Below are positions 3,079 to 42,310 of a DNA stretch of 64,000 bases, piece after piece. Origin of the DNA: an uncultured Clostridia bacterium. GTDB taxonomy: Bacteria; Bacillota; Clostridia; TANB77; CAG-508. Made by a program: the position numbers and the translations under genes. The stretch covers positions 1,789 to 65,788 of the forward strand of contig CALXQP010000020.1 in NCBI GenBank assembly GCA_944390695.1, read 5' to 3'. A model generated the notes under the pieces. The model did no database searches. It had not been told where the DNA came from and saw only the letters and a program-made list of their open reading frames with translations. How positions within the stretch are numbered: position 1 is the stretch's first letter; the number at the start of each line of letters is the position of its first letter.

Positions 3079-3456
3079 TTATATATTTCTATATTCTTTT
3101 ACTTTTTTATATGCAAATATTGCAATTACTATTAATGCAAATATTGCTACACCTACTACTGTATTTTCTGCAAGACCAGCTTCTGGTAAATTAGTTTCAT
3201 AATTGTTAGCTGGTGGTGTTTGTTCTTCATTAGTACTTGTATTATTATTATTTTGGTTTGCATTAGTATTTGTATTATTTGTATTGTTTGTATTATTATT
3301 TGTACTATCATTAGGCTCTAATTGATCAGTTGTATCTTCAAAGAAATCAAGCCCCTCATCACTATCTGTTAAGGCAAATACATTTGTTGATACTGACATT
3401 AATACAATTCCAACTACTAAAACTAATATTAATTTAAAAATTCTTTCTTTTTTCAT
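3079..3456 (-). CDS. Small sortase-substrate-like surface protein (signal peptide, N/T-rich low-complexity region, LPEAG motif, TM helix, basic tail)
   Basis: 125 aa. The C-terminus NLPEAGLAENTVVGVAIFALIVIAIFAYKKVKEYRNI has cell-wall sorting-signal architecture. The N-terminus looks like a signal peptide. Confidence 0.55.
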   Translation of the reverse strand: MKKERIFKLILVLVVGIVLMSVSTNVFALTDSDEGLDFFEDTTDQLEPNDSTNNNTNNTNNTNTNANQNNNNTSTNEEQTPPANNYETNLPEAGLAENTVVGVAIFALIVIAIFAYKKVKEYRNI

Positions 3457-3620: not shown

Positions 3621-4712
3621 TTAAACATTAAATTTAAAAAGAACAATATCTCCATCTTGCATTATATAATCTTTTCCCTCTTGACGAACTAATCCCTTTT
3701 CTCTTGCAGCAACCATTGAACCTTCTCTTATTAAATCGTCATATGAAACAACTTCTGCTTTAATAAAACCTCTTTCAATATCAGAATGAATTTTTCCGGC
3801 AGCTTTGGGAGCTTTTGTACCTTTTTTGATTGTCCAAGCTCTTACTTCTGGCTCACCTGCAGTCAAAAATGACATTAAACCTAATAAGTCATAACTTTTT
3901 TTGATTAATTTATCTAATCCAGATTCTTCTAGTCCTAAAGCTTCTAGCATTTCAGCTTTATCTTTTTCTTCTAGTCCAGATAATTCCTCTTCTATTTTAA
4001 CACATAATGGAATTACTTCTGCATTTTCCTTTTTAGCATATTCAATTACATTTCTTACCATAGGCTCATTTTCTGCATTTCCAATTTGCTCTTCTGAAAT
4101 ATTTGCTATATATATTATTGGTTTTGCTGTTAATAAAAACATATCTTTTAACATTTCTTGTTCATCTTCGGTAAAAGACATTGCTCTTGCAGAAATTCCT
4201 TTTTCCAAATTTGCTTTTAATTTTTCAATAAAATCAATTTCAGCTTGATATTTTTTATCTGCTTTTAAATTCTTTTTAGCTTTTTCTAGTCTTTTATCTA
4301 GTGTTTCCAAATCTGCAAATATTAATTCTAAATTTATTGTTTCAATATCTCTTAATGGATTTACACTTCCATCTACATGTATAACATTTGCATCTTCAAA
4401 GCATCTTACTACTTGTACTATTGCATCTACTTCTCTTATATGTGATAAAAATTTATTTCCAAGACCTTCTCCTTGGCTCGCTCCTTTTACTAGTCCTGCA
4501 ATATCTACAAATTCCACTACTGCTTTTGTTACCTTTTGTGGTTTGTACATTTCTGCTAATTTATCTATTCTTTCATCTGGAACAGCAACAACACCCACAT
4601 TTGGCTCTATTGTACAAAATGGATAATTTGCACATTCTGCTCCTGCTTTTGTAATACTATTAAACATTGTACTTTTTCCTACATTAGGTAAACCTACTAT
4701 TCCTATCTTCAT
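3621..4712 (-). CDS. ychF: Ribosome-binding ATPase YchF (Obg-family GTPase)
   Basis: 363 aa. G1 motif GLPNVGKST, then the TGS domain. Strong family resemblance over the full length. Confidence 0.95.
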   Translation of the reverse strand: MKIGIVGLPNVGKSTMFNSITKAGAECANYPFCTIEPNVGVVAVPDERIDKLAEMYKPQKVTKAVVEFVDIAGLVKGASQGEGLGNKFLSHIREVDAIVQVVRCFEDANVIHVDGSVNPLRDIETINLELIFADLETLDKRLEKAKKNLKADKKYQAEIDFIEKLKANLEKGISARAMSFTEDEQEMLKDMFLLTAKPIIYIANISEEQIGNAENEPMVRNVIEYAKKENAEVIPLCVKIEEELSGLEEKDKAEMLEALGLEESGLDKLIKKSYDLLGLMSFLTAGEPEVRAWTIKKGTKAPKAAGKIHSDIERGFIKAEVVSYDDLIREGSMVAAREKGLVRQEGKDYIMQDGDIVLFKFNV

Positions 4713-4814
4713 TATTATGCCTCCATTTTTTGTTTGTATGTTATTTTATAACATCTACCTTTTTTTATACTATATATTTTCTTCAAAAATAATAGATAAT
4801 TTCTTACGCTATTC

Positions 4815-4889
4815 TGGCTGGGGTGGTAGGATTCGAACCTACGCATCGATGGGTCAGAGCCATCTGCCTTACCGCTTGGCTACACCCCA
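4815..4889 (-). tRNA. tRNA-Gln (anticodon CUG)
   Basis: Reverse complement reads TGGGGTGTAGCCAAGCGGTAAGGCAGATGGCTCTGACCCATCGATGCGTAGGTTCGAATCCTACCACCCCAGCCA. Acceptor stem is 7 bp, the T-loop is GGTTCGAATCC, the anticodon loop is CTCTGAC (CTG) and CCA is encoded. Resembles the Bacillus tRNA-Gln body (AGCCAAGCGGTAAGGC). Confidence 0.85.
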
Positions 4890-5036
4890 AAGTAAGTTAA
4901 TTACAGTACTTATAATACCACAGCCATCAAAAATTTGCAATATTATATTATAAGAAGTTTCGGTTTTTTTCAAAATTGCTTTTAAGTTTTCAATTGACTA
5001 TTTTTTTCAAAATCAATATATATCCTAAAAAATATT

Positions 5037-5720
5037 CTAAAATTCATATTTATCTATTTCTTTTTCATATTTTTTATATTCTGGCATAAATTTTTCTATA
5101 ATCTCAAAAAATCTTTTGCCATGTGTCTTATATTTTAAATGACAAAATTCATGCATAATTACATATTCTATTATTTCTCTCTTATATTGCATTAATTCTG
5201 GATTTATTGTTATTTTACCATTAACACATTTTCCTAAAGTATTTTTTATTTTAGAAATTTCATAATCTTCAGGAGCAAAACCTAGTATTTTTCTTGTTTT
5301 TTCCATAAAATGCTCTACTTCATTATTAGCTATTTGCTCATACATTTTCTCTATTGACATTTCTAAAATTTGTTCATTTCCTATTTTTTTATATTTATTA
5401 GGTAATATAATTTTTATATTATAATTTTTTTCTAAATTTAATTCTGGAGTTTTTATATTTTTATATTCTACTTTAATATCATAATATTTTCCAAATATTT
5501 TTACTGATTGCATATTTGGAAGATTTTGTTCATATTCTTGCATTTTATTTAAAATCCAGTTCTTTTTCTCTTGTACCATTTGTTGAATTTTATTTGCAGT
5601 AAAATACCAAGGTGCATTAACAACTACTTCACCATTTTGAACTGAAATATATACATCTTTATTTATCACCTTATTTACTGTATATGTTATTACATTATCT
5701 TTTCTTCCAAATATACTCAT
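5037..5720 (-). CDS. YgjP/DUF45-like metal-dependent hydrolase (M48/SprT-like, HExxH)
   Basis: 227 aa. C-terminal segment GKITINPELMQYKREIIEYVIMHEFCHLKYKTHGKRFFEIIEKFMPEYKK matches the DUF45 zinc-binding HExxH region. Confidence 0.65.
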   Translation of the reverse strand: MSIFGRKDNVITYTVNKVINKDVYISVQNGEVVVNAPWYFTANKIQQMVQEKKNWILNKMQEYEQNLPNMQSVKIFGKYYDIKVEYKNIKTPELNLEKNYNIKIILPNKYKKIGNEQILEMSIEKMYEQIANNEVEHFMEKTRKILGFAPEDYEISKIKNTLGKCVNGKITINPELMQYKREIIEYVIMHEFCHLKYKTHGKRFFEIIEKFMPEYKKYEKEIDKYEF

Positions 5721-5877
5721 CTTAATTTCCTCCTTATTTTTCGAATTGTTGTTCGCTTTTGTTGTTCTTATTTTATAACCTTTTTTTCATTTTGTCAATA
5801 GTTTTTCAAAATTTTTCGAACATTTTTTTGTATTTCTTTTTTTTTAATCAAATACAAGAATTTTGAAGTAAGAATTG

Positions 5878-5928
5878 TAGATTAGTAAGTTTAGTAGTGA
5901 GTTTCAAAAATACCGAAACTTAAATATT
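5878..5928. repeat. Fragment of dispersed repeat family B (terminal ...TTTCAAAAATACCGAAAC)
   Basis: Matches the terminus of the palindromic element at 33194-33540. A related fragment lies at about 4958-4990 (GAAGTTTCGGTTTTTTTCAAAA). Confidence 0.4.
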
Positions 5929-5998
5929 TTTAAATATAAAATTTTTCAGATAAGTTATATATTAACTAGACAAGTAATATATTTTATCGAGGTGTAAC

Positions 5999-7051
5999 AT
6001 GAGAAAAAATTATTTTTACATTTTTAAATTAAAACAAATTATATTGCCATCAATTCTAATACTATTTACTAGTTGTCTTGTAATCTTTTCTAATACAAAT
6101 CTATCAGCTGCAAAAAATGGGCTTATTTTATGGGCAAATTCAATAGTTCCATCATTATTTCCATTTTTCGTAGCAACTGAACTATTATCACATACAAACT
6201 TCACATATTATCTTGGCAAAATCTTAAATAAATTTATGAAACCTATTTTCAATGTACGTGGAGAAGGCAGTTTCGCACTGATTATGGGAATTATTAGTGG
6301 ATATCCAATAGGAGCCAAAATTGCAGCAAATTTTCGAAAAAATAATATATGTTCAAAAGAAGAATGTGAAAGACTTTTAAGTTTCACAAACAACTCTGGT
6401 CCATTATTTATAATTGGAACTGTTGGAATTAGTATGTTTGGAAATTCAACAATTGGCTTTCTTTTACTCATAACACATCTACTTGCATCATTTACAGTTG
6501 GAATTATTTTTAGATTTTGGAAATATCAAAAAGATTCACATATTCAAGAAAATCATACATGGTCTAACACAAATGATAATATCAGCCTTTCAAATTTAGG
6601 AGGAATCATAGGAAACAGCATTTCCAGCTCAATAAACACTATTCTTTTAATTGGTGGATTTGTAGTACTATTTTCTGTAATAATTTCAATAATGCAAGCA
6701 AGCCAATTATTACAAATATTGTCAAACAGTTTACAACATATTTTCAATTTGCTACATATCCCCTCAACATTCTGTACAGGCTTCATTTCAGGAATTCTAG
6801 AATTAACAAATGGCTTAAATATTATATGTAACATACCAGAAAAAAACTTGTCAATAAACATTATGATTGCCTCTTTTCTTCTTGGCCTAGGCGGAATATC
6901 AATATTATTACAAGTTTGGAGCACAATTGCGAAAACAGATTTATCAATAAAACCATATATTCTAGGCAAATTACTACACGCATGTTTCTCCGCATTATAC
7001 ACATTTATACTCCTAAATAATTTTGTAATATTCAATTTTAACATTATCTAA
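5999..7051 (+). CDS. ylbJ: Sporulation integral membrane protein YlbJ-like (nucleoside-recognition/Gate domain membrane protein)
   Basis: 350 aa, polytopic membrane protein. Segment GSFALIMGIISGYPIGAKIAANFRKNNICSKEECERLLSFTNNSGPLFIIGTVG resembles the YlbJ family. Confidence 0.6.
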   Translation: MRKNYFYIFKLKQIILPSILILFTSCLVIFSNTNLSAAKNGLILWANSIVPSLFPFFVATELLSHTNFTYYLGKILNKFMKPIFNVRGEGSFALIMGIISGYPIGAKIAANFRKNNICSKEECERLLSFTNNSGPLFIIGTVGISMFGNSTIGFLLLITHLLASFTVGIIFRFWKYQKDSHIQENHTWSNTNDNISLSNLGGIIGNSISSSINTILLIGGFVVLFSVIISIMQASQLLQILSNSLQHIFNLLHIPSTFCTGFISGILELTNGLNIICNIPEKNLSINIMIASFLLGLGGISILLQVWSTIAKTDLSIKPYILGKLLHACFSALYTFILLNNFVIFNFNII

Positions 7052-7059
7052 AATTTGAC

Positions 7060-7156
7060 AAAAAGAGAACCGGCACCAAATTAGCAAAACAGCCCAAACC
7101 AGCTGGCCAAGCGAAAAAGAAGCAAAAAGGCAAAAAGAGAACCGGCACCAAATTAC
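7060..7156. repeat. Dispersed intergenic repeat family A (two direct cores AAAAAGAGAACCGGCACCAAATTA separated by a GC-rich module)
   Basis: Cores at 7060-7083 and 7124-7156 flank the spacer gcaaaacagcccaaaccagctggccaagcgaaaaagaagc. Same family as the copies at 12346, 16190, 21265 and 29955. The second core supplies the TAA stop of the VanW gene. Confidence 0.7.
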
Positions 7157-7890
7157 CCTATTTTAAAAAGCTTAGCAGTAACATTAGTAGGAGAATTTTC
7201 CATCACAATTTTAATCGTATTAGAAGTATTATTTTTAAACTTAAAATCATAAGCACCATAAGAAACAGCAGCATCATTTCCATCTTGAATATATGGAACA
7301 TGCCCACTATGTTTATGTCTTTCCACAACTTCAAGTTCATGGACTTTCAAAACCGCATTATATAAAGTAGTGCTAACCTGGCAATTTCCGCCTCCAAGCC
7401 CCTGCTCTTTTTTGCCTTCTACATAAATATCTGCTTTTTCATATCCTTTATCAGTAGTAGCCTTTCCAACAACTTTCTCAAAAGAAAAAGTTTCACCTGG
7501 CGCAATTTCACAATTAGTTAATCTTTGGCAAGTTATAGTAATATTATTTTGTCTTTCTTCATCTTTATTGTATATTTTAGTAGAAAAATTAGCTATTTCA
7601 GTTTCTTTTTTAGATGAAGTCTCTTTTCCTGGTTTATTAGTAGTTGAATTATTTGATATATTATCATCTTTACCGTTTATATCAGTAGTTTTATCATCTT
7701 TTTTTTCAGCACTACCTTCATTTTTAAAATCATCTTTATTACTTGTAGTAGTGCCGCTTCTCTGAGCTTGATAATTCGAATTATTAGTTCCTTGTTCTGA
7801 ATTATTTGTACTATTCCTTGAACTAAACCACCACCAAGCACCTCCAGTAATTAATGTTAAAACTACCCCTATCACAACATATTTCTTCAT
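7153..7890 (-). CDS. VanW domain-containing protein (N-terminal TM anchor)
   Basis: 245 aa. GETFSFEKVVG...GGGNCQVSTTLYNAVLKVHELEVVERHKHSGHVPYIQDGNDAAVSYG matches VanW family conserved blocks. N-terminal hydrophobic helix. Confidence 0.75.
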   Translation of the reverse strand: MKKYVVIGVVLTLITGGAWWWFSSRNSTNNSEQGTNNSNYQAQRSGTTTSNKDDFKNEGSAEKKDDKTTDINGKDDNISNNSTTNKPGKETSSKKETEIANFSTKIYNKDEERQNNITITCQRLTNCEIAPGETFSFEKVVGKATTDKGYEKADIYVEGKKEQGLGGGNCQVSTTLYNAVLKVHELEVVERHKHSGHVPYIQDGNDAAVSYGAYDFKFKNNTSNTIKIVMENSPTNVTAKLFKIG

Positions 7891-7917
7891 TTTTTCCTCC
7901 TTTCACAACTCAATAGA

Positions 7918-10137
7918 TTATGAACTTATTTCATATGCTTTTCTCAATTTTTCTATTTTTTTAATCTGTTCATTTTCATAATCAATTTCTTGTTGTGCAT
8001 TTCTTCTATAAACATCAATTGTAAACTCTCTTTTAACTGATCCATCTTGAGAAGTTACGATAATTGTAATCTTATTATTGCCATCTACAATATTTTCATT
8101 CCCAAAAATCTCTGATTTTGCATTTTCATTTTCTGGAATAGCCAAAATATTAAGTTTAGTAATATTATGTGATACTTCTGTGCTATAATTAGTAATAGAA
8201 TTATCAAATGGCACATTAAATAAAGCATTTTCAATAGCTAGAGTCTCCAAATTCGTATTTTTAGCTTCTAAAATTGTTCCATCATTTTGAGCAGCCTCTA
8301 CCAATTTAGCATTATCTATTAATTGAGCGTCATCTACTATATCTAGGGATTGAGCACTATCTACTCTATCTACAAACTGTTCAATTATTTGTAAGCCCAA
8401 AATATGTCGTTGAATTAACAATAAATCAACTGAAGTAGGCTTATTTCCATTTTTTCTAACATTTGAAGCCTTAACAAAAATATCATCTAATTTTTGAATC
8501 TCCAAAATATGTCTTTGTAAAACCAATAAATCAACACTATTAATTTTTCCATCACCATTTGAATCTCCATATAAAATAACATTATATTCTTTCAAAACAC
8601 TTCCATTTTGTTTAAAGCGAACTTTGCAGCCTGTGCCAACCAAATCGCTCTCATTAAGCACTTTATCATTTAGATTAACTATTTCGACATCAATATTAGT
8701 AGCTGAATTAGCAGCAAGTTCAGCCTCAATTTCTTTTTTTAGATTTGAAACAGAATTTGCTTTATAATTTAAACCTGTAACTTCTGAATCTGCCCAGTTT
8801 AACTCATTCTCAGTATTTTCAAGCACTTCAGATACATATTTTTGGCTTATATAACCTATAATTCCATTTTCTAAAATGACTTTATCCCATTTGTCCCCAG
8901 ACTGCTTGCCTTTCAAAATCCTCGTCATTTTGGCTTGAATTGGAACAGTTGTTATAATTTCATATGAAGTACTTGGGCCAGTTCTTATATTTACAGTATT
9001 AGCATTACACATTACTTTTGAATTATCTTGTACAAAATCATTTTTATTTATATTTGGACTATCTGCAGGAATAGTTGGCATATTATTATAAATAGGAATA
9101 ATAAATGAAATTGACGAATCTAGCATCCCCACTTTTTGATATCCATTATAAATAGATTTTGACTCACTATATGGTGCCAAAACATTTGTCATATATTGAT
9201 GCCAAAACAAGCCATCACCATTTGTATCAATAACATCAAATTTCTGTAGATAAACTGTGTTTTGCCCAACATTTATATAACTAGAACCAATAAAAATTCC
9301 ACCACCACTAATTGCCTTATCTTTATTATTCCATGGAATTAAATATTTTCTTTTAGTAGATTCATTTGCACCTTTGCCATCTCTTGCATATCTTAAGCCA
9401 TTTTTGATTGCCCCCATTGGTTCAGCTGAACTTGTAGCACCTATATTATAAAAATTGTATAACCCTTCAAATCCACTTACTGTACCACTTATAGAACCAT
9501 GTGTCAAAAATGGTCCAACCTCTTGTTTTATGCGAGATGCTAAATGATATGAACTTACAGATGATGTTTTCGCAGCTTTTAAAATCAAATCAGAATATCT
9601 TTCACTCATAGAAATATTGTTTCCATTACTATCAAAATATGAAACTTGTTTTTGATAAAATTCTGTTCCATATAAAATTTTTTCAATTGCTAATAAATCA
9701 TTTGTATGCTCATCATAAGATAATCCTTCGAATTGAAACAATCGTACTTCATTTAAGAAATTTCTAGGATCCATGCAATATTCAACTGCCTGTTTAGAAC
9801 TATCTACCCAACCTGCATCAACTTCCACGTTATACTGTCCAGGCGTAGTATTTTTCCAAGAATCTGAATAATTTAATGGTACCAAATTTTTTCCAAATAC
9901 ATTTTCTTCTTTTATAACATAATTCCAATCCAAACCAGTATATAATGGTATAAATTTCCAATTCGGATGTTTTTTTGCAAGCTCTCTTAAATATGGCTGA
10001 TAATCACTCGGAAACTTGTCAATTCCACCAGCTGAACTTGCTCCATTTACACTAAAATACAAAAATATCAAACCACTTATTAATATAACCAAAATTGTAA
10101 TGAAAATATATTTTTTCTTTTTACCAAATCTCTTCAT
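7918..10137 (-). CDS. Multidomain cell-wall hydrolase: glucosaminidase (GH73-like) + SH3b + type-I dockerin + C-terminal Ig-like domain, N-terminal TM/signal
   Basis: 739 aa. YNFYNIGATSSAEPMG...ISGGGIFIGSSYI resembles the Glucosaminidase/GH73 fold. SH3b-like segment VNIRTGPSTSYEIITTVPIQAKMTRIL...GYISQKYV. Dockerin segments are GDSNGDGKINSVDLLVLQRHIL (canonical Ca loop D-x-N-x-D-G-x-I-N-x-x-D) and NGNKPTSVDLLLIQRHIL (degenerate). Confidence 0.7.
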   Translation of the reverse strand: MKRFGKKKKYIFITILVILISGLIFLYFSVNGASSAGGIDKFPSDYQPYLRELAKKHPNWKFIPLYTGLDWNYVIKEENVFGKNLVPLNYSDSWKNTTPGQYNVEVDAGWVDSSKQAVEYCMDPRNFLNEVRLFQFEGLSYDEHTNDLLAIEKILYGTEFYQKQVSYFDSNGNNISMSERYSDLILKAAKTSSVSSYHLASRIKQEVGPFLTHGSISGTVSGFEGLYNFYNIGATSSAEPMGAIKNGLRYARDGKGANESTKRKYLIPWNNKDKAISGGGIFIGSSYINVGQNTVYLQKFDVIDTNGDGLFWHQYMTNVLAPYSESKSIYNGYQKVGMLDSSISFIIPIYNNMPTIPADSPNINKNDFVQDNSKVMCNANTVNIRTGPSTSYEIITTVPIQAKMTRILKGKQSGDKWDKVILENGIIGYISQKYVSEVLENTENELNWADSEVTGLNYKANSVSNLKKEIEAELAANSATNIDVEIVNLNDKVLNESDLVGTGCKVRFKQNGSVLKEYNVILYGDSNGDGKINSVDLLVLQRHILEIQKLDDIFVKASNVRKNGNKPTSVDLLLIQRHILGLQIIEQFVDRVDSAQSLDIVDDAQLIDNAKLVEAAQNDGTILEAKNTNLETLAIENALFNVPFDNSITNYSTEVSHNITKLNILAIPENENAKSEIFGNENIVDGNNKITIIVTSQDGSVKREFTIDVYRRNAQQEIDYENEQIKKIEKLRKAYEISS

Positions 10138-10268
10138 TTCAGACCTCTTTACTTCACTATATTTTTCATATCTGCCTTTAAATTTTTTAATTTAACCAAA
10201 ATTTAAAACTATTTATTTCTCTATTTTTATCATATCTGCCACTTTAATTTTTTATCTTTAATAAAATT

Positions 10269-11036
10269 TCAAACTTCTTTAGCTTTCACAATAATTCTTT
10301 TTTGAGAATCTAAAGTACAAGTAATTAATGTAACTTCTCTTTCATTATAAGTTACAGGCTCAAGGCAACTAACATCTTTAGGCGAAACTTTTTCTATTGA
10401 AAAAACTTCATATTCAACCTTTCCCACATCTTTATCAGTCAAGAAAAGCTTGTCCCCAATTTTCAATTTTTTTAAATTTCTAAACATGTTTTTATTTATA
10501 AAATTATGACCTGCAATACAGCAATTTCCTATCCTATTAGGTTCAACACCCCAAAATTTAGTAACAGAAATATTTAAAGCACTAACTGAATAATTTTTTA
10601 ATACATTTGTTTCTAAATTTATAGCCGGTATTTCTAATTTTGCACAAACATCGTAACCTCTATAAGTAGCAGCAAATTCTTCTTTAGGATATTTTTTTGC
10701 AACCATCTTATTTGCCTGCGTATTTGACTCTTCATTTTTATTTTTCACTTTTTCATTATTTTCATTATTGCTTGATTCTTTATTTTCCTCATTTTTTGCA
10801 TTATTACTTGATTTATTATTTCCATTATTAGTTAAATTATTTGTAGTAAAATTTTGATCTATTTTAATAGTTTCATATTCATTTTTTCTTTCGACCTCCA
10901 TAGGTACATATCTATAATATTTTCTCACAATCCAAAAAGATAAAATTAAAATTAATATCAATATTAAATTAACAAAAATGTTTTTAGCCAAATGGTTTTT
11001 CAGCCATCTCTTATCTACTTTCATTTTCAGTCTCAT
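10269..11036 (-). CDS. Sortase (SrtA/class D-like, TLITC active site) with N-terminal TM and N/S/E/K-rich linker
   Basis: 255 aa. Catalytic His in CIAGHNF and Cys in REVTLITCT, plus conserved Arg downstream. Paralog of the sortase at 40648-41271. The true start may be the internal MKVDK. Confidence 0.8.
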   Translation of the reverse strand: MRLKMKVDKRWLKNHLAKNIFVNLILILILILSFWIVRKYYRYVPMEVERKNEYETIKIDQNFTTNNLTNNGNNKSSNNAKNEENKESSNNENNEKVKNKNEESNTQANKMVAKKYPKEEFAATYRGYDVCAKLEIPAINLETNVLKNYSVSALNISVTKFWGVEPNRIGNCCIAGHNFINKNMFRNLKKLKIGDKLFLTDKDVGKVEYEVFSIEKVSPKDVSCLEPVTYNEREVTLITCTLDSQKRIIVKAKEV

Positions 11037-11223
11037 TCCTTCATCTTTCCTTTATGTGACATACAAAATTGTAATTATTTTCAAACTTTCTCGTATATAA
11101 GCAAATAAGAAATGGAATCAATCACATTTCTTATTACTATTTTTCACTTATTGCCAAAATCTAAATTAATTAAAAAAATTGTATATCATCTGTTATTCTA
11201 AATTGATTTTAAAATTATCTATT

Positions 11224-12276
11224 TTACTTGCTTTTTACATCAAAATAAAAAATAATTCCTGCTGCACTAATTAATACGATTAAGATACCCATTAAAACGA
11301 ATATATTATTGCCTGTTTTAGGTAACTCTTCAGGTTTTTCTTCAACTTGTTGATTTCCTTCAGTTGTAGGTTGCTGATTCTCATTTTCGCTATTTCCCGG
11401 TTGATTCTCTTCAGGTTGTTCGGTTTGCTGCTCTTCTGCAACTTTAAAATTAAAAGTTTTTTCCGCAATAGTTGCATCAGAATTGTCTCTATCTATCAAT
11501 TTCAAAGTAATTGTATAATCACCAGCATCACTAAATAATGCTTTAACATTTAATTCTTGCAAAACATCTTTTCCACCAATTTTATAGCCTTGAGGATCAC
11601 CCCAACCACTTTGAATAATGTCTTGTTCTGCTGAAGTGTCTGCATTAATTCCTGTCAATTTTACACTAGCATTTGCTGGAGTTGTTGCTTCTGCAATCAA
11701 TCTTGCATGTTCATAGTAATGTCCCATTGGTGAAGAATAAGAAAGTTTCATTTCCTTTTCTTGACCTTTAACAATATCACCTGTATGAGTCAAACTTATC
11801 ACATAATCTTTGTACTCTGGCTCGACTGTCAAATTTTCAACCATAGGCATTGTAATATCATCATAAGTCTCTGAAGCATCTGCATTTGACAAACCTTCTC
11901 CTGTCACAGAAAATTCTGTTGGATTTGATGTTGTAATATCACTTTTTGCTCTAAATGTAACACTCATATTTTCTCTCGCATTAGTTCCTCCTGATGAATC
12001 ATGAAAAACCACTCTTACTTTGTCTGTAGTATCATTTGCTGTTCCACCATCAGCAGATACATATTCAAATATCTTGTTGTCATAAGCAACATCAAATGTG
12101 TATGCACCTAATTGTTTACCAAAATCAATTGTTATTTTTACTTCTTCTCCTGGTCTTACAGTTGTTTTATCAACTTTTGTACTTATAGTATCTAATGATA
12201 ATGCATAACTTTTTCCAGAAAAAATAAATATCATAAGCAATATAAAACTTAAAATTATACTAAATATCTTTTTCAC
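11224..12276 (-). CDS. LPXTG-anchored surface protein with N-terminal cohesin-like domain
   Basis: 350 aa, GTG start with SD AAGGAGG. Signal peptide. VDKTTVRPGEEVKITIDFGKQLGAYTFDVAYDNKIFEYVS matches the cohesin β-sandwich signature. C-terminal Q/E/P-rich stalk, then LPKTG + TM + KSK tail. Confidence 0.7.
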   Translation of the reverse strand: MKKIFSIILSFILLMIFIFSGKSYALSLDTISTKVDKTTVRPGEEVKITIDFGKQLGAYTFDVAYDNKIFEYVSADGGTANDTTDKVRVVFHDSSGGTNARENMSVTFRAKSDITTSNPTEFSVTGEGLSNADASETYDDITMPMVENLTVEPEYKDYVISLTHTGDIVKGQEKEMKLSYSSPMGHYYEHARLIAEATTPANASVKLTGINADTSAEQDIIQSGWGDPQGYKIGGKDVLQELNVKALFSDAGDYTITLKLIDRDNSDATIAEKTFNFKVAEEQQTEQPEENQPGNSENENQQPTTEGNQQVEEKPEELPKTGNNIFVLMGILIVLISAAGIIFYFDVKSK

Positions 12277-35406: not shown

Positions 35407-35850
35407 TTATATAGCTACATATTCTCCTATTATTTTAATCAAATATTTATCATGTATATACTCATAAGATTTACCTGTATCTGATCCAAAATCTTTTTTT
35501 TCTATTTCTAATGATAACTGCTCTTCATTTGCATTAATAAGTACTGCTTTTCCTGTTTCTTCATAATTTTTCTTTTTACTTTCATACTCTTCTTTATCTT
35601 CGAATTGTTCAAATATTTTTACTGCATTTAAAATATTATTTTCAAAAGAATATTCTATTACTTTATTATATGCTGAATTACATTTTATTACAAGTTTCTC
35701 TCCTTCTATTGTTCTCATATTATTATTTTCAGAATTGCTTATACATTTACTTACAAAATACATTCCAAAAAATATTATAATAATCATTAGTATTATTATG
35801 ACTATTTTTATGAAATTTATATTTTTCTTTTCCTCACTGTGTTTACTCAT
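35407..35850 (-). CDS. Hypothetical membrane-anchored protein (last gene of sortase cassette 2)
   Basis: 147 aa. N-terminal TM IVIIILMIIIIFFGMYFV and a charged C-terminal domain. Confidence 0.45.
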   Translation of the reverse strand: MSKHSEEKKNINFIKIVIIILMIIIIFFGMYFVSKCISNSENNNMRTIEGEKLVIKCNSAYNKVIEYSFENNILNAVKIFEQFEDKEEYESKKKNYEETGKAVLINANEEQLSLEIEKKDFGSDTGKSYEYIHDKYLIKIIGEYVAI

Positions 35851-35873
35851 TATTTATCTCCTATACTTTAAAC

Positions 35874-35900
35874 AAAAGAACAGGTAAAACCTGTTCTTTT
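35874..35900 (-). terminator. Intrinsic terminator after the giant adhesin gene
   Basis: Stem AAAAGAACAGG-taaaa-CCTGTTCTTTT followed by U-tract TTTTGTTT on the minus transcript. Confidence 0.6.
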
Positions 35901-35911: not shown

Positions 35912-38900
35912 TTATCTTTCTATAAAATATCTTATAATTACACTATTATCAGTAATTTTTGTTGTATTATTTTGGTCTGCATTATAAGCATTTATATCAA
36001 AAGTTAATTGTTTAGTATTTGCATTATAAGCTACATAATTATTTGGTAGAGTTGAACAACTAAATAACTCTTCTCCATTATATTCAACAACTAATTTGTT
36101 TTCTGAATTTATCACTAAATTCTTTTCTAATTGAATTGTAATTTTTCCTGAAGTTGTTGTAACTGGTTTTTGAGGATTCATCTCTTCTTCTAAGTTTCTA
36201 AATATGTCTGCTAATGATTCTGCATCTTCTGCAGTTCTAACTTTTCCATCAGAAGATATATCTCCTAGAACTTCATAAGCATCTGAATCTGGGTCAATAG
36301 CATCTGAACCAAATCCTATTGAATAGATTGTTGCACTTCTCTTATTTTCTCCATCTTTTATTTTAGTAGCAGTGTTTGTAATATTATTTTTTGAGTTATC
36401 TTCATATCCATCAGTTCTAGTTGATGTTGGGTCTCCATCTCCTAAGAATATAACAACATTACTATTATTTGGATAAGTTGCTACAAGGCCATTATTTTTA
36501 TCATATATAACATCATAAGTTTTATCTAATGCTGCTTTTATATGTGTTCCATATCCTGAAGTAGCTGTTCCAATATCAATATTTCCTATTTCTGTTATTA
36601 AATCTTGATAATTTTTATTTGTTGCTGTAGTTTGGTCATTGTTTTTACCAAAAGTTAATACTCTTGTTCCAACATATTTGTTTCTATTACTTATTGATTT
36701 TTGGTTAAATGTTACAACAGTAATAGTTGCTTTAGAATCTGGATTTTTGTATACTTCTTTAATAAATTCTTGAGCTGCTTTTTTAGCTGCTTCTAATCTT
36801 GTTCCTTGTGATACATTTTTACCCCATATACCTGTACTCCATTGTTCTTCACATCCTTCAGGACAATACTCTCCCCACCAATTATAACTATGTTCATGTG
36901 TACATTTTACAAAAGTATAAATCTTTTCATTCATACTTGAAGATAGGTCTATTACTAATACTATATTATTAGCATCTTTTCCTTGTTCTCCTGGTTTTGT
37001 TCCTACTTCTACACCACTAATTTCATTTATTTTTGTTGTTACTTTATCTGTTTTATTTTCTGGTGTAGATGATGGTGTATCATCACTTAATTTGGCTGTA
37101 TTTTCAATTGTTTTACCAATTTGATCTGCATTTATTTTAACTGTAACTGTTAAATTAGTTATTCCATTATTTGCTGGAACTTCTATATTTGACCATGTAA
37201 CTACTCCATTTGCATATATACCACCATTATCTGATCTAACATATGTTACACCTTCTGGTAATATATCTGTAACTGTCGTTACTGTTCCTCTTGCTTTTCC
37301 AGTATTTGTTAATTTTATTGTATATGTTACTTCTTCTCCAACTTTTGCAGTCTTTGGAGCTAATTTTTCTATACTAATATCTGGTTTTCCATAATATACT
37401 CTAATTATATTATTTGCTGGATCTGCTGATATTGTCAAAGGTGTTCCTTCTATTCTATCTAATTGATATCCATTTGGCATATTTGATGTATCAATATCTT
37501 CAGCATTTATTTGACTTCCTAATAATGCTTTTAGACCTTGGCTTGTTTCAAATGGTTCTGTTTCTCCATCTTTATAATATTCTACAGTATAAGAAATTTC
37601 ATCTTTTACATAATATACTTCTATTATATTATTTTCTGGATTTGATGTTATTGTTAAAGGTGTTCCTTCTATTCTATCAAGTTTATATCCTGCTGGCATA
37701 TTTGATGTATCAACATCTTCTGCATTTATTTGGCTTCCAAATAATGCTTTTAGATCTTGATTTACTTCAAATGGTTCTGCTTCTCCATCTTTATAATATT
37801 TTACTGTATATGAGAATTCATCTCTTATATAATATACTTCAATGATATTTCGAGTTGGATCTGCTGTTACTTTTAGTGGTAATCCACTTGTTTTGTCAAA
37901 CTTATATCCATCTATATTTTTATCTGTATATGTACTAATAATAGAATCAAATTCTGCTTTTAAATTATCAGTTTTACTATCATCTTGAATTCCATCATAA
38001 TAGTACTTAACAGTATAATCTATCATTGCTTTTTCATAATAGAAATTGATTTCATTTCCTTCTAATTTTACTGTTATTGTTTGTTCTGTTGGATCAACTT
38101 TGTTATATCCAGGTATTTCTATTGCACTTTCTGTTATTTCACTATTAAATACTAATCCTGTTAATTCTTTGCTTTCTGCTAATTTTGTTGTTGTATCTTT
38201 TAAATAGTAATTTACTATTCCTGTTAATCCTGTTACTGGTGTATAGTAGAAGTTTATTTCATTTCCTTCTAATCCTACTGTTATTGTTTGTTCTGTTGGG
38301 TCAACTTTTTCATATCCAGGTATTTCTATTGCACTTTCTGTTACTTGGCTATTAAATACTAATCCTGTTAATTCTTTGCTTTCTGCTAATTTTGTCGTTG
38401 TTCCTTCTAAGTAGTAATTTACTATTCCTGTTAATCCTGTTACTGGTGTATAATAGAAGTTTATTTCATTTCCTTCTAATCCTACTGTTATTGTTTGTTC
38501 TGTTGGATCAACTTTTTCATATCCAGGTATTTCTATTGCATTTTCTGTTACTGTGCTATTAAATACTAATCCTGTTAATTCTTTGCTTTCTGCTAATTTT
38601 GTTGTTGTATCTTTTAAGTAGTAATTTACTATTCCTGTTAAATCTGTTCTTGGTTCATAGTAGAAATTAATTTCATTTCCTTCTAATTCTACTGTTATTG
38701 TTTGCTCTATTGGAGCTAACTTATTATATCCAGGAATATCTATTGCACTTTCTGTTACTGTGCTATTAAATACTAATCCTGTTAATTCTTTACTTTCTGC
38801 TAATTTTGTTGTTGTGTCTTTTAAATAGTAATTTACTATTCCTGTTAAATCTGTTCTTGGTTCATAATAGAAATTGATTTCATTTCCTTCTAATTTTACT

Positions 38901-40618
38901 GTTATTGTTTGCTCTGTTGGACCAAATTTATTATATCCAGGTATTTCTATTGCACTTTCTGTTACTTGGCTATTAAATACTAATCCTGTTAATTCTTTAC
39001 TTTTTGCTAATTTTGTTGTTGTATCTTTTAAATAGTAATTTACTATTCCTGTTAAGTCTGCTCTTGGTGTCCATTTTGCATAATATGTTGTTGTTCCTGC
39101 AGGATAATTTTCTGGTAAATTTGTAACTTTTTCTCCAGTAAATTCTGGATCAGCATACCATCCGTCAAATACATATCCTGGTCTTTCTGTTGTTGGCATA
39201 TTTCTATCTGTTATTGGCTCTCCTTTTATTCCTGTAAGGTCCTCAACTTCAGAACCACCATTTTCTTCAAATACTATATAAGATTCAACTTTTGTTGTAT
39301 CTGTATTAGTATCTGTTCCACCAACATTTGCTATATTTATTATTTCACTATCAATACTTGTTACTCTAACTTTAAAGCTTCTTGTTATTGTTTCATTTGC
39401 AGCTAAAGATATTGACCATGCAACTGTATCTTTTTCTTCTGATACTATTGCATCACCTTCTGCTGACACAAATTCTGTTCCTGTTGGAACTTTGTCTGAT
39501 ATATATGTTTTTCCTTCACCATCACCTGTATTTGATACAGTTATAGTATATGTAATAATATCACCTATTCTTGCAGCTTCAATTCCTTCTGTAATTTCTT
39601 CATTATCTTGAATTCTCGTTATAACACTTGATTTATTTGCTATTATTATTGATGTTTTTGTTTCTTCTTCTCCATCATCACCAGTACTCTTTTCTCCATT
39701 TGCTATAGCTGTATTTAGAATTGTTCCTGTTAATGGAACTAATACTCCATTTTCATCTAATTTATTTTCATTAACATTTACTGTGAATCTAGCAACTACT
39801 GTTTCTCCTGCTGGAACTGTTACAACCCATTTAACACCTTCAACTACATTTTCAGAGTTAACAGTTGTTTTTGTTCCTACAACTTCATTTGCTATAACTG
39901 CATCTTCAATAGATACAAAAGTAGTGTTTTCTGGTATTTTATCTGTTATTTCAATATTTTTTACATCTACTTCACTATTATTTGTTACAGATATAACATA
40001 TGTTAAATCTTGACCAGCATATACAAAATTGTCTCCTCCAACACCTGTTATTACTGATTTTCTAACATCTAATTGTGGTTTTTCTACATCTAATACAGTT
40101 GGTTGATCAACTTTAATTGCCATTGGTTCCCACCAATCGAAAAATTGTCTTGATACTATTCTCTCAACTTCTTCATATCTTGTAATTGTTGTTTCACCAA
40201 CTTCATTTACATCTGTCCCTGTTGTTATTTCTGCATTTTCATCATCATTATTATTTTCTGTATTACCTTCGTTGTTTGCTGTATTATCATTATTTACAGC
40301 TTCATTATCTGCATTATCATTGTTTTCATTATCATTATTGTTTTCTGATTCTTCACCTTCATTTTGAACAGGTGTTTCTGGATTTTCAGTTTCATTACCT
40401 ATATTAGGATCTGTATCTGAATTATCATTATTTTCAGTTTGATCTCCATCTACAGGTCGATTTCCATCATTTTCTTGTTCTGGAGTTGTTGTTGAAGTTT
40501 GGTCTCCATCAACAGCGGCTGTCTCTCCTCTAGTGTACAAGAATACTCCTACCGATATTCCAGCAATAAACAATAATACTACTACTGTGATAATAGCAAT
40601 AATACTCTTTTTGCTCAT
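35912..40618 (-). CDS. Giant surface adhesin: N-terminal TM anchor, acidic linker, DUF11 repeat domains, Listeria-Bacteroides repeat, 5+3 MucBP-like repeats, C-terminal von Willebrand factor A (VWA) domain
   Basis: 1568 aa. The MIDAS motif VLVIDLSSSM marks the VWA domain. DUF11-like blocks YTITVSNTGDG and VTYTIKLTNTGKARG. GYVFDGWYADPEF fits the Flg_new repeat. Five roughly 93-aa and three roughly 92-aa YY-containing β-repeats. No C-terminal LPXTG. Confidence 0.8.
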   Translation of the reverse strand: MSKKSIIAIITVVVLLFIAGISVGVFLYTRGETAAVDGDQTSTTTPEQENDGNRPVDGDQTENNDNSDTDPNIGNETENPETPVQNEGEESENNNDNENNDNADNEAVNNDNTANNEGNTENNNDDENAEITTGTDVNEVGETTITRYEEVERIVSRQFFDWWEPMAIKVDQPTVLDVEKPQLDVRKSVITGVGGDNFVYAGQDLTYVISVTNNSEVDVKNIEITDKIPENTTFVSIEDAVIANEVVGTKTTVNSENVVEGVKWVVTVPAGETVVARFTVNVNENKLDENGVLVPLTGTILNTAIANGEKSTGDDGEEETKTSIIIANKSSVITRIQDNEEITEGIEAARIGDIITYTITVSNTGDGEGKTYISDKVPTGTEFVSAEGDAIVSEEKDTVAWSISLAANETITRSFKVRVTSIDSEIINIANVGGTDTNTDTTKVESYIVFEENGGSEVEDLTGIKGEPITDRNMPTTERPGYVFDGWYADPEFTGEKVTNLPENYPAGTTTYYAKWTPRADLTGIVNYYLKDTTTKLAKSKELTGLVFNSQVTESAIEIPGYNKFGPTEQTITVKLEGNEINFYYEPRTDLTGIVNYYLKDTTTKLAESKELTGLVFNSTVTESAIDIPGYNKLAPIEQTITVELEGNEINFYYEPRTDLTGIVNYYLKDTTTKLAESKELTGLVFNSTVTENAIEIPGYEKVDPTEQTITVGLEGNEINFYYTPVTGLTGIVNYYLEGTTTKLAESKELTGLVFNSQVTESAIEIPGYEKVDPTEQTITVGLEGNEINFYYTPVTGLTGIVNYYLKDTTTKLAESKELTGLVFNSEITESAIEIPGYNKVDPTEQTITVKLEGNEINFYYEKAMIDYTVKYYYDGIQDDSKTDNLKAEFDSIISTYTDKNIDGYKFDKTSGLPLKVTADPTRNIIEVYYIRDEFSYTVKYYKDGEAEPFEVNQDLKALFGSQINAEDVDTSNMPAGYKLDRIEGTPLTITSNPENNIIEVYYVKDEISYTVEYYKDGETEPFETSQGLKALLGSQINAEDIDTSNMPNGYQLDRIEGTPLTISADPANNIIRVYYGKPDISIEKLAPKTAKVGEEVTYTIKLTNTGKARGTVTTVTDILPEGVTYVRSDNGGIYANGVVTWSNIEVPANNGITNLTVTVKINADQIGKTIENTAKLSDDTPSSTPENKTDKVTTKINEISGVEVGTKPGEQGKDANNIVLVIDLSSSMNEKIYTFVKCTHEHSYNWWGEYCPEGCEEQWSTGIWGKNVSQGTRLEAAKKAAQEFIKEVYKNPDSKATITVVTFNQKSISNRNKYVGTRVLTFGKNNDQTTATNKNYQDLITEIGNIDIGTATSGYGTHIKAALDKTYDVIYDKNNGLVATYPNNSNVVIFLGDGDPTSTRTDGYEDNSKNNITNTATKIKDGENKRSATIYSIGFGSDAIDPDSDAYEVLGDISSDGKVRTAEDAESLADIFRNLEEEMNPQKPVTTTSGKITIQLEKNLVINSENKLVVEYNGEELFSCSTLPNNYVAYNANTKQLTFDINAYNADQNNTTKITDNSVIIRYFIER
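36820..39060 (-). repeat. Intragenic tandem repeats (5 × about 279 bp, then 3 × about 276 bp) encoding MucBP-like modules
   Basis: Near-identical DNA units are visible, for example ...catttccttctaatcctactgttattgtttgttctgttgg... recurring every roughly 279 bp between about 37660 and 39060. Confidence 0.75.
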
Positions 40619-40647: not shown

Positions 40648-41271
40648 CTATAAAATTTCTTTAGCTTTTAATATAAGTCTTTGTTTATTTCCATTTGTAC
40701 ATGTAATTAATGTTACTTCTCTTACGAGTTCATCTTTTGCTAATAAAATATTTACATCATTAGGGTCTGTTACAAAGATATCATAAATTGAATATTGAAT
40801 TGTTTGACCTTTTAAGTCTGTTAATTCTACTATATCTCCAATTTTTAATTTTTTTGTTTTTCCAAACATTGTACCATCTCTGTTATTATGACCTGCTATT
40901 GATAAATTTCCATAATCATTTACATTTTCGCCCCAATATTTTATTATGGATAATTTCATTGGTTTTTTTGCATTTTCCGGGTCAATTTCTCCAATTTCTA
41001 ATATTGGATATTCTATATCTATTTGCGGAATTTTTACTATTCCAATCACTTTATACCCTTTATATTCTAATTGAATTTGCTCCCCTGATTCTTCTGGATT
41101 ACTAGAAAAATCTATATTACTAAAAGCAGCTACTGCTTCTTGAGTTTCTTTCTCATTTTTTTGATTACTACCATATTTATAAACTATCATGCCAATAATT
41201 ACAATTGCTGCTATTAATAACATATAAAAAATTGCTTTGTAAATTTTTAGTTCAATACTATTTTTCTTCAT
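40648..41271 (-). CDS. Sortase (TLITC active site), paralog of the 10269-11036 sortase
   Basis: 207 aa. N-terminal TM, IAGHNNR catalytic His and REVTLITCT catalytic Cys. Aligns block-for-block with the other sortase (YKGYKV/YRGYDV, KKLKIGD, I[IL]KAKE). Confidence 0.8.
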   Translation of the reverse strand: MKKNSIELKIYKAIFYMLLIAAIVIIGMIVYKYGSNQKNEKETQEAVAAFSNIDFSSNPEESGEQIQLEYKGYKVIGIVKIPQIDIEYPILEIGEIDPENAKKPMKLSIIKYWGENVNDYGNLSIAGHNNRDGTMFGKTKKLKIGDIVELTDLKGQTIQYSIYDIFVTDPNDVNILLAKDELVREVTLITCTNGNKQRLILKAKEIL

Positions 41272-42310
41272 CTTTTTTGCTTATTTTTTTCATTCTAATA
41301 AATATTACTATTACTAGAACTGCTATTATTCCTAATGCTACAAATAATGCAATACTATCATATGTTATTGGTAGTCTTGTTGTTTCTTCAGTTGCAACTT
41401 TTACTATATCTTTATTTTCTACATCTTTTTCATCAGCTGTTAAAAATTGAATATCTAATGTAGTTTCACCATTTGCAACCTTTTTTAATAATACTATGTA
41501 TCTATCATTTTCTTTAGATTCTTCTGGTTGTTTAATCATCATGTTTTCTACTTTGTTCCATTTAGCTTGATCAGCTACATTTGCTAATTTTTCATTAAAT
41601 TCTTCTACAAATTTAATTTTTTCATACATTTCCATTGAATCATATTCATTTTGAACTTTTAAAGCTAATTCTTCTAAGTTATTGTATGAATCTGTGCTTG
41701 GCAATTTAACCATTTCATACCAATATTCTGCATTTTCATCATCTAATATTTGCACATATCCTACATAAGTAGTTTCTTTAACACCTTCTACTTCTTCTTC
41801 TTTTAATTTTTCTAGAATTTCAGTATCTTGAGTATCTGCTATTTTTACTTCTATATTTGATGTTAAATTTTCTACATTTTCAATTTCTTTGCTTGTTAAA
41901 GCTTTGCTTAAATCTAATTGGATTCCTTCTAGAATTAAATTTTCATTTTCATCTTTTGCCCACATATAAATTGGTTTATTTTCTTCTAAATTTTCGTCTT
42001 TAGTTAAATTATTGTAAGTTTCTGCATCTAAAAATGCTACTTGATTTCCGTTCTCTCCCAAATCTGAGATTGAATTAATAAAAGATAAATCCATTCCATT
42101 TGGATCCGCATTTTCATTATTTGTAAATGCGTATTTAAAATTTTGTGTTGATATCCCTTTTATGTAAATTATATATCCTTGATTTGTTTCATTATTCATT
42201 GCATTTATTATAGAGATATCTTCATTTGAAGCAAAAACTGTAATTGGCATTAATGATATAAATAATATCATTACTACTATACCAACCAGTTTGGCGGTAA
42301 ATTTTTTCAT
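41258..42310 (-). CDS. Secreted acidic protein with C-terminal sorting-signal-like tail (LPITY + TM + KK); putative substrate of the adjacent sortase
   Basis: 350 aa. Signal peptide and an E/N/K-rich body. C-terminus TTRLPITYDSIALFVALGIIAVLVIVIFIRMKKISKKDEEK. Overlaps the sortase gene start by 14 nt. Confidence 0.55.
   Translation of the reverse strand: MKKFTAKLVGIVVMILFISLMPITVFASNEDISIINAMNNETNQGYIIYIKGISTQNFKYAFTNNENADPNGMDLSFINSISDLGENGNQVAFLDAETYNNLTKDENLEENKPIYMWAKDENENLILEGIQLDLSKALTSKEIENVENLTSNIEVKIADTQDTEILEKLKEEEVEGVKETTYVGYVQILDDENAEYWYEMVKLPSTDSYNNLEELALKVQNEYDSMEMYEKIKFVEEFNEKLANVADQAKWNKVENMMIKQPEESKENDRYIVLLKKVANGETTLDIQFLTADEKDVENKDIVKVATEETTRLPITYDSIALFVALGIIAVLVIVIFIRMKKISKKDEEK

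Follow-up and report, generated by a model that had tools for sequence, protein, structure and literature searches.

We analyzed a window of 64,000 nucleotides, i.e., the whole stretch of DNA considered here, from an uncultured Clostridia bacterium (TANB77; CAG-508; assembly GCA_944390695.1, contig CALXQP010000020.1, positions 1,789-65,788), in which an earlier reading of the letters alone (hereafter the original prediction) had described a cohesin/dockerin autolysin cassette. The system in question comprises a secreted cohesin protein with a wall-anchoring signal (Coh1), a sortase, and a peptidoglycan hydrolase that carries both a dockerin and a catalytic region of the glycoside hydrolase family 73 (GH73) type. 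We consider it moderately probable that Coh1 and the dockerin form a tether, which would hold this GH73 autolysin on the wall of the very cell that produces it. The cassette is real and conserved, and the core idea of the original prediction survives, whereas its list of genes, its claim of full novelty and the cohesin that it favored need revision.

Coh1 starts with a signal peptide and a cohesin, continues with another conserved beta-domain and a stalk rich in Pro, Glu and Gln, and closes with an LPKTG motif followed by a transmembrane (TM) segment and a basic tail (Table 1). Residues 32-125 matched the Pfam Cohesin family (PF00963) with 29.1 bits (E 1.3e-6), and the same family was precomputed for nearly all of the Coh1 homologues listed (1206 homologues). 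The curated Pfam cut-offs are 24.1 bits for Cohesin and 22.9 bits for Dockerin_1, and all Pfam and NCBIfam domain calls cited here exceed theirs. In the AlphaFold2 (AF2) model of Coh1, block means of the predicted local distance difference test (pLDDT) were mostly above 90 in both beta-domains, with helices at the N-terminus (residues 2-22) and the C-terminus (residues 326-349). The top structural matches of this model were cohesins, the nearest being those of the non-cellulosomal Clostridium perfringens NagJ (2w1n) and a GH33 sialidase (2vo8). In the model, the N-terminal domain has a genuine cohesin fold, i.e., a nine-stranded jelly-roll beta-sandwich superposable on solved cohesins. In a profile search of the PDB with the Coh1 alignment, cohesin matches were weak (E 0.03-0.1). 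Within the alignment of Coh1 homologues, the cohesin stretches ITTSNPTE and GL.N.DA were invariant or nearly so.

The remainder of Coh1 was also well conserved. The second beta-domain (residues 151-282), which is conserved at least as strongly as the cohesin, bears the invariant motifs SGWGD.QGYKIGGKD (GWGDxQGYKIGGKD) and YYEHARL; a Pfam search with it gave only weak PKD-like matches and no assignable family, and it may bind the wall or another partner. Residues L318, P319, K320, T321 and G322 were invariant in 15 of 15 homologues and are followed by a hydrophobic helix and then by KSK, and the LPXTG anchor scored 20.9 against TIGR01167 (cut-off 15.9). Coh1 therefore has the signal peptide, the motif, the hydrophobic segment and the basic tail of an LPXTG substrate, and its linkage to the wall is predicted. 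Every element that the original prediction had assigned to this protein, from the cohesin to the basic tail, was recovered.

The hydrolase carries an N-terminal export signal ahead of its catalytic region. By phmmer, residues 36-365 were found to be related to glucosaminidase chains of Staphylococcus aureus, i.e., 6fxo (1.2e-7), 6fxp (2e-7), 6u0o (6.5e-7) and 4pi7 (0.02). Of these, 6fxo is Atl and 4pi7 is AtlE, such that the solved relatives of the catalytic domain include chains deposited as autolysins; 6fxp and 6u0o we take to be SagB. The hydrolase segment hlasrikqEvg aligned with ylishallEtg of 6fxp/6u0o, and hqymtn with hqyatd. Both the glutamate in question, E206 (in RIKQEVG), and HQYMTN were invariant in 20 of 20 hydrolase homologues, and, from general knowledge of GH73, E206 is presumably the catalytic acid. 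Residues 36-365 are thus classified, by sequence, as a putative and distant GH73-type domain with predicted activity. An exhaustive search placed this domain of approximately 330 residues in a family of 2664 clusters at 50% identity, 1451 of them below 1e-30. In Pfam-A, neither the window's catalytic domain nor its homologue in locus L082 (7694-8932) found a match, and the family appears to be without a Pfam model of its own.

The SH3b domain described by the original prediction was confirmed (SH3_3), and is followed by a module, termed X, that is kept beside the dockerin in all relatives. The dockerin matched Dockerin_1 (PF00404) over its full length (1-57 of 57) with 36.4 bits and two repeats of about 22 residues, and by phmmer it matched the Xyn10B/CelS dockerins 2ccl (2.9e-7) and 1ohz. 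When a canonical Ca2+ loop is taken to be one with D or N at positions 1, 3, 5, 9 and 12, the first loop, DSNGDGKINSVD, is canonical. Both dockerin helices read SVDLLxxQRHIL and are nearly invariant across 28 paired loci. At the C-terminus lies a domain that the original prediction had missed, namely a cadherin-like beta-sandwich (PF12733, 32.3 bits, residues 635-712).

The sortase consists of an N-terminal TM segment, a low-complexity linker and a catalytic domain that ends in TLITC (residues 236-240), as predicted, and it has no C-terminal TM segment. It passed TIGR01076 (61.7, cut-off 39.35) but fell below every NCBIfam class cut-off, i.e., class C (72.6/160), class E (61/160), SrtD (49.6/140) and class D (36/165), with class C being the best of the class models. 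The closest solved sortase chains were 4d70 (1.3e-13) and 2kw8 (2.3e-11), which we take to be the class D enzymes C. perfringens SrtD and Bacillus anthracis SrtC. Like these two, the window sortase is small, has an N-terminal anchor and is encoded beside few dedicated substrates; unlike them, it lies below all class cut-offs and its substrate motif is LPKTG. Class D sortases go with LPxTA/LPNTA-type motifs.

Further along the window, a second sortase-linked surface cluster is encoded on the minus strand at 35407-42310. It contains a 350-amino-acid protein without a Pfam match (42310..41258), a 207-amino-acid sortase (41271..40648) with the same TLITC...KAKE ending as the cassette sortase, and a 1568-amino-acid protein (40618..35912) with DUF11, Listeria-Bacteroides repeat and VWA domains and no obvious LPXTG tail. 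Since the window encodes this paralogue (35% identity) beside a 1568-amino-acid surface protein, the cassette sortase is not the only sortase of the genome, which fits a dedicated role for it.

Coh1 relatives were found in 121 species-level genomes, all of them metagenome-assembled genomes (MAGs) of uncultured Clostridia, one being a complete chromosome of 1.55 Mb. Samples named in the titles of their records are, among others, human (Hadza, Nepal, human-gut catalogue), wild-mouse, goat-colon and "faecipullorum" ones. Genome context was retrieved for 80 of these loci, with 8 kb on either side. The sortase gene adjoins the cohesin gene in 79 of the 80, and the dockerin hydrolase is linked to it in 77. 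In six genomes (L003, L004, L005, L007, L008, L021) the order is permuted to hydrolase, fourth gene, cohesin and sortase, with the genes still together. Because linkage is this frequent and is kept under a permuted order, the data provide strong evidence of functional coupling among the cohesin, sortase and hydrolase.

The relatives also revealed what the window has lost. Their hydrolase has the architecture GH73-SH3-(Big_2)x2-X-Doc, where Doc is the dockerin, and ends right after it, and the fourth gene encodes a protein of about 425 amino acids (Coh2), in which a signal peptide and an N-terminal domain are followed by a pair of cadherin-like domains and, at the C-terminus, by a TM helix. The Coh2 N-terminal domain matched Coh1 in pairwise comparison (E 3e-8) and by hhalign (98.6%, E 7.9e-16), and a direct Pfam Cohesin match was obtained for two of 20 members. 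By these comparisons it is a second cohesin, with Coh1 and Coh2 as paralogues. The split layout with four genes and two cohesins (Coh1, sortase, hydrolase, Coh2) was present in 65 of the 80 loci. In the window, hydrolase residues 623-737 aligned with the last cadherin-like domain of the L001 fourth gene (BLASTP 1e-38). The window hydrolase is therefore an in-frame fusion, in which both Big_2 domains, Coh2, the first of the cadherin-like domains and also the TM anchor have been deleted; its stop codon follows ...AYEISS, with no TM segment. An assembly artefact was ruled out by an identical protein (P0121) from an independent assembly and by fusions in other species. The latter were found with a TM segment in P0126, L039 and L068, and without one in P0122. 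Fused hydrolases sit in three-gene cassettes without Coh2 or VanW (including L092 and L093). After the loss of Coh2, Coh1 is the only cohesin left in the window cassette.

In a number of relatives, the hydrolase gene was broken into two to four consecutive open reading frames (ORFs), i.e., in L024, L030, L037, L040, L041, L045, L046, L048, L053, L056, L060, L064, L066, L069, L070, L075, L076, L077, L079 and L080. These could be assembly frameshift errors or recurrent pseudogenization of the autolysin.

Outside this lineage, the dockerin-bearing hydrolase was found with a different company of genes. Amongst the best 150 representatives of the GH73-like family, a C-terminal dockerin was detected in 40 by hidden Markov model and in 44 when a loop pattern was added, and 69 had a cadherin-like domain. 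Distant contexts were drawn from eight dockerin-bearing representatives and two virome-labelled scaffolds (L081, L082), with guanine-plus-cytosine (GC) contents of 27-54%; the tenth was cut by a contig end. In all nine evaluable loci (L081, L082 and seven of the eight look-ups) the next co-directional gene encoded a cadherin-like protein, with a cohesin or cohesin-like N-terminal domain in six and a TM helix in seven. No sortase or LPXTG protein was found nearby in the distant loci examined. Because the pair recurs there without either, the core and older system is the dockerin-bearing GH73 enzyme (GH73-Doc) with a membrane-anchored cohesin protein (Coh-Cad-TM), spread over Clostridia of 27-54% GC. 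In the window lineage, a cohesin paralogue anchored to the wall was gained in addition, together with a dedicated sortase, and the window then lost the membrane cohesin, such that it carries a derived variant of the two-gene module, with the second gene reduced to one fused cadherin-like domain. In three distant, high-GC loci (L088 7023-8928, L090 9076-10963 and L087 4126-4617), a gene for a GtrA-like membrane protein followed GH73-Doc and Coh-Cad, and in L088 and L090 this was followed by a Mur-ligase-family gene, which may point to a connection with the synthesis of the wall or of glycopolymers.

In the mechanism that we favor, Coh1 would be exported, and the adjacent sortase would cut LPKT|G and attach Coh1 to peptidoglycan by a covalent bond, by way of a stalk of about 35 residues. 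The hydrolase would be exported through its N-terminal signal or anchor, with SH3b binding the wall, and its Ca2+-loaded dockerin would plug into the cohesin of Coh1 (and of Coh2 where present). A glycan-cutting enzyme would in this way be held on the envelope of its producer instead of diffusing away, and autolysis (daughter-cell separation, wall turnover) would be confined in space. This tether is supported by the near-invariance of the dockerin helices across the 28 paired loci and of cohesin stretches such as ITTSNPTE, by variants that keep the dockerin with Coh1 as their sole remaining cohesin, and by the precedent of ScaE, Sca2 and Sca5 (see below). The P0126, L039 and L068 fusions lend further support, with a covalent TM link replacing the Coh2 bridge. 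Because the TM anchor of Coh2 is there fused to the hydrolase, the enzyme would work physically with its cohesin-bearing neighbor.

Several observations weigh against this tether. Of the Pfam families named by the original prediction, Cohesin, Dockerin_1, SH3_3, VanW and Sortase were all matched, but Glucosaminidase (PF01832) gave no match with either the whole protein or the isolated domain at E up to 10, so that the "glucosaminidase-like" label rests instead on phmmer homology to solved GH73 chains, with their glutamate. The AF2 model of the hydrolase, built from a 20-sequence alignment, was unusable in the catalytic region (pLDDT 25-35), and it is for this reason that the domain was filed as GH73-type from its sequence. 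The duplicated dockerin had been predicted to have a degenerate second copy, and indeed the second loop, NVRKNGNKPTSVD, departs from the canonical pattern by an Arg at position 3 and by an additional residue, a form that is kept in relatives. Because the cadherin-like domain follows at the C-terminus, the dockerin is internal in the window hydrolase, with about 150 residues after it. Moreover, it is Coh2, and not Coh1, that this type of dockerin has as its widespread and older partner. Other dockerin proteins also lie close to Coh1. In L078 (6801-7703), a 300-amino-acid "adaptor" with a signal peptide, a cohesin (Pfam 40.9 bits) and a dockerin is encoded directly upstream of Coh1, and in L079 (14249-15341) the gene beside the cassette encodes a dockerin protein whose long C-terminal extension gave no Pfam match. 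Some genomes of the lineage thus have a small cohesin-dockerin network that goes beyond a single pair. In L074, Coh1 and the sortase are present with no hydrolase nearby. Given these extra dockerin proteins and L074, Coh1 may serve as an anchor in general and not specifically for the autolysin.

Some of these observations favor a reading in which the true partner of the dockerin is Coh2 only and Coh1 is a sortase-anchored receptor for something else, e.g., another dockerin protein, a glycan or a host ligand; for the window, where Coh2 is gone, this would make the dockerin a relic or a Ca2+ module of structural function, with the cadherin-like fusion replacing the lost interaction. GH73-Doc and Coh-Cad-TM are a widespread pair that occurs without a sortase or an LPXTG cohesin, the fusions join the hydrolase to the C-terminal part of Coh2 and not to Coh1, and L074, L078 and L079 show Coh1 without the hydrolase or beside other dockerin proteins. 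However, the fused three-gene variants keep a well-conserved dockerin despite the loss of Coh2, which argues for a remaining partner; Coh1 is, by the hhalign match, a paralogue of Coh2, making a shared specificity plausible; and Coh1 is linked to the hydrolase in 77 of the 80 loci. We regard an exclusive Coh2 partnership as rather unlikely. An offensive role for the same proposed tether, in which a surface-displayed muralytic enzyme attacks the peptidoglycan of neighbors in the gut for competition or nutrient scavenging, seems to us clearly improbable. Housekeeping autolysins typically combine GH73 with SH3b, the catalytic domain has its solved relatives in S. aureus chains that were deposited as autolysins (Atl, AtlE), the older membrane-anchored cohesin partner would hold the enzyme beneath or within the wall of its producer, and no immunity gene was conserved alongside in the relatives' and distant loci examined. 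On the other side, the stalk would put the cohesin at the outer surface, lineage genomes are small (the complete chromosome of 1.55 Mb), and defence or attack has been proposed for dockerins on lysozyme-like modules in a survey of rumen metagenomes (PMC6487960).

Two further readings were rejected. If a class C-type sortase polymerized the LPKTG protein into a pilus-like fiber, the cohesin-like fold could be a pilin beta-sandwich, and both the best NCBIfam class model (class C) and the adjacency of sortase and substrate genes would agree with this. However, the score with the class C model falls well short of its cut-off, and the nearest solved sortases are, we presume, class D enzymes; the sortase lacks a C-terminal TM segment, there is a single substrate gene and neither a tip nor a base pilin, a gene for a dockerin protein is a conserved neighbor, and the structural matches of Coh1 are cohesins. 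A fiber of this kind is very improbable. Origin as a prophage or phage-derived endolysin module is effectively refuted. Seven "Bacteriophage sp." records match the hydrolase at 31-43% identity, but these are short, UNVERIFIED and unannotated faecal-virome scaffolds, of which L081 is bacterial and carries ClpC-, RadA- and glycosyltransferase-like genes. No Coh1 relative was found in 2.9 million viral contigs, the window context is one of chromosomal housekeeping, and the hydrolase has an N-terminal export signal. As a separate matter, L081, L082 and L083 (MT836697.1, MT836742.1, MT836085.1) are labelled "UNVERIFIED: Bacteriophage sp." in GenBank and come from human faecal viromes; L081 is plainly bacterial chromosome, L082 has apparent purine-biosynthesis and other housekeeping genes, and the bacterial genes of these two look like contamination of a phage collection.

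A tether of Coh1 and dockerin also invites comparison with known systems. The single-cohesin LPXTG scaffoldins ScaE of Ruminococcus flavefaciens and Sca2 and Sca5 of the R. bromii amylosomes tether dockerin proteins to the cell, and the Sca2 cohesin also binds dockerins of non-amylase proteins, e.g., peptidases. Like these, the window has one cohesin with a C-terminal LPXTG signal for the proposed tethering of a dockerin to the wall in a gut Firmicute. It differs from them in that the cargo is a peptidoglycan hydrolase and not a scaffoldin, cellulase or amylase, in that a compact operon unites the cohesin gene with a dedicated sortase gene and that of a single cargo, and in that a second cohesin, anchored in the membrane, is present in most of the window's relatives. 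The full window of 64 kb holds one cohesin and one dockerin, both in the cassette, unlike the ScaE/Sca2/Sca5 species, which have dozens to hundreds of dockerins per genome. All of the cohesin proteins carry a single cohesin, and no plant- or starch-degrading enzyme was found among the cassette genes and neighbors scanned, which sets the system apart from cellulosomes and amylosomes. In function it resembles the anchoring step of ruminococcal cellulosomes and amylosomes, where a single cohesin anchored by a sortase takes up a dockerin; it is not itself a cellulosome. In the non-cellulosomal glycosidase/toxin complexes of C. perfringens, the cohesins and dockerins of NagJ, NagH and NanJ sit on secreted host-glycan hydrolases and bind each other. 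The window differs in that its cohesin is on a wall-anchored receptor and its enzyme is predicted to target the cell's own wall.

The original prediction had also held that this arrangement has not been described as a unit, which is overstated. A single cohesin and a single dockerin "associated with a GH73 enzyme" have been noted for Ruminococcus bicirculans (Wegmann et al., 2014, as cited by Ze et al.; PMC4611034). As in the window, a lone set of cohesin and dockerin there goes with a GH73 enzyme, in a gut species of the Clostridia that is non-cellulolytic. As worded in the citing text, that passing genomic remark has no sortase, LPXTG cohesin or second cohesin, and the R. bicirculans set is probably an instance of the GH73-Doc and Coh-Cad module. 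GH73 is also listed in a table of the GH families of dockerin-containing proteins of R. albus (PMC4081043). In the literature searched, which covered Wegmann et al. (2014) through the citing paper, we found no description of the sortase operon, the two-anchor layout or the spread of the GH73-Doc/Coh-Cad-TM pair, and no experiments on them. Within cohesin-dockerin surface tethering, the system stands out by its unusual cargo, a peptidoglycan hydrolase, and by a sortase of its own.

The nearest functional analogue of the proposed tether is SagB-SpdC of S. aureus, in which a membrane-bound GH73 glucosaminidase is controlled by a membrane partner (bioRxiv 10.1101/2020.05.21.109470). As we propose for the window, a GH73 cutter of glycan strands is positioned there by a separately encoded, dedicated partner anchored in the envelope. 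SpdC is polytopic, however, and binds the catalytic domain directly, whereas in the window the link would be a modular cohesin-dockerin plug with a wall and/or membrane anchor. On a bolder reading, which we put forward with low confidence and think quite unlikely, cohesin-dockerin pairing would be an old and widespread means of controlling clostridial GH73 autolysins, separate from fiber degradation and with a handover from membrane to wall. A dockerin with a dual binding mode, given its two near-identical helices, would sit on Coh2-Cad-TM and, in the window lineage, also on Coh1. The enzyme would pass from the membrane to the outer wall, or be divided between the two, and how deep within the wall it cuts glycan strands would be fixed in this way. 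The system would then be a modular counterpart of SagB-SpdC, and the window fusion a natural "wall-only" rewiring.

With regard to gene layout, the four co-directional ORFs of the original prediction were found exactly where it had placed them, all on the minus strand. It had described almost no intergenic space, which is true of the hydrolase and VanW genes (27 bp) but not of the other gaps, i.e., 187 bp between Coh1 and sortase and 131 bp between sortase and hydrolase. It had also read the four genes as one system closed by VanW, and while this holds for the cohesin protein, sortase and dockerin hydrolase, it does not hold for VanW. The VanW domain is genuine, yet the gene is adjacent to the cassette in none of the 80 relatives, being present only once (1/80), about 7 kb off and on the opposite strand, and it is absent downstream in L092, L093 and L094, the first two of which have fused hydrolases. 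VanW was therefore ruled out as a member and is a neighbor gene, outside the conserved system. In this genome it is probably co-transcribed with the cassette. Between positions 6900 and 12900, the only terminator-like hairpin on the minus strand lies just after VanW, a count not above shuffle controls, and none was found between cassette genes or between hydrolase and VanW. A promoter scan gave 31 sites against 33.6 expected, i.e., no signal.

Table 1. Features of the cassette and its immediate neighborhood, in window coordinates.
Feature	Position	Strand	Basis
Coh1, secreted surface protein, 350 aa (amino acids)	11224..12276	-	ORF, Pfam Cohesin, TIGR01167, 1206 homologues, AF2 model
Coh1 cohesin module, residues 27-150	11827..12198	-	Pfam Cohesin, cohesin fold
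Coh1 second beta-sandwich domain, residues 151-282	11431..11826	-	Alignment invariants, confident AF2 strands
LPKTG sortase cleavage motif, Coh1 residues 318-322	11311..11325	-	Invariant in homologues
Sortase, 255 aa	10269..11036	-	Pfam Sortase, 93.2 bits
Exported peptidoglycan hydrolase (predicted), 739 aa: GH73-like, SH3b, X, dockerin, cadherin-like	7918..10137	-	Pfam, phmmer, homologues
GH73-type N-acetylglucosaminidase-like domain (putative), residues 36-365	9043..10032	-	phmmer, invariant residues
SH3b (SH3_3) wall-binding domain, residues 381-436	8830..8997	-	Pfam, 35.2 bits; PDB 2kq8, 2krs
X module before dockerin, residues ~447-520	8578..8799	-	Kept beside dockerin in all relatives; AF2 pLDDT 70-85
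Type I dockerin, residues 523-580	8398..8571	-	Pfam Dockerin_1, phmmer
Cadherin-like beta-sandwich and coiled tail, residues 623-737	7927..8271	-	BLASTP vs L001 fourth gene, PF12733; no TM
VanW-domain membrane protein, 245 aa	7153..7890	-	Pfam VanW, 150.1 bits; 27 bp downstream of hydrolase
Terminator-like hairpin	7090..7105	-	Just after VanW; consensus match only

The window has a GC content of approximately 27%, and the genes around the cassette are those of chromosomal housekeeping and sporulation, i.e., ThrRS, YchF, L31, YtfJ, ScpA and UvrA. The flanks (L31, YtfJ, ScpA) recur beside the cassette in few relatives only. In L001, a gene resembling, by its sequence, a large serine recombinase (4409-6022) lies about 2 kb upstream of the cassette, and in L093 (1550-4165) VanY, SPL and Peptidase_C39 genes are found upstream. 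The cassette seems to move, or to sit in a rearranging region. Elsewhere in the window, a 125-amino-acid ORF on the minus strand (3079-3456) ends in LPEAG, a hydrophobic segment and a basic tail and may be a further sortase substrate. At 60723-63803 (minus strand), a 1026-amino-acid protein with eight DUF285 repeats (Pfam E 5.8e-86) is encoded; DUF285 is a family named for Mycoplasma proteins, found here in a low-GC, small-genome lineage of Clostridia.

The ways in which Gram-positive bacteria hold the enzymes that cut their own wall in the right place have been worked out in only a few model species. If the proposed tether is true, many uncultured gut Clostridia, i.e., the 121 species-level genomes for the version with a sortase and many more lineages for the version with a membrane cohesin, would use the plug and socket of the cellulosome to tether a GH73 autolysin. 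The system is small, with one cohesin, one dockerin, one sortase and one enzyme, and would offer a ready-made orthogonal pair for surface display. Its natural variants, i.e., split with two anchors, fused with a TM segment and fused without one, would amount to a series of rewiring experiments. Finally, some of the "orphan" noncellulosomal cohesins and dockerins, which have been a puzzle to the field, would gain a function in the physiology of the cell through the tether.

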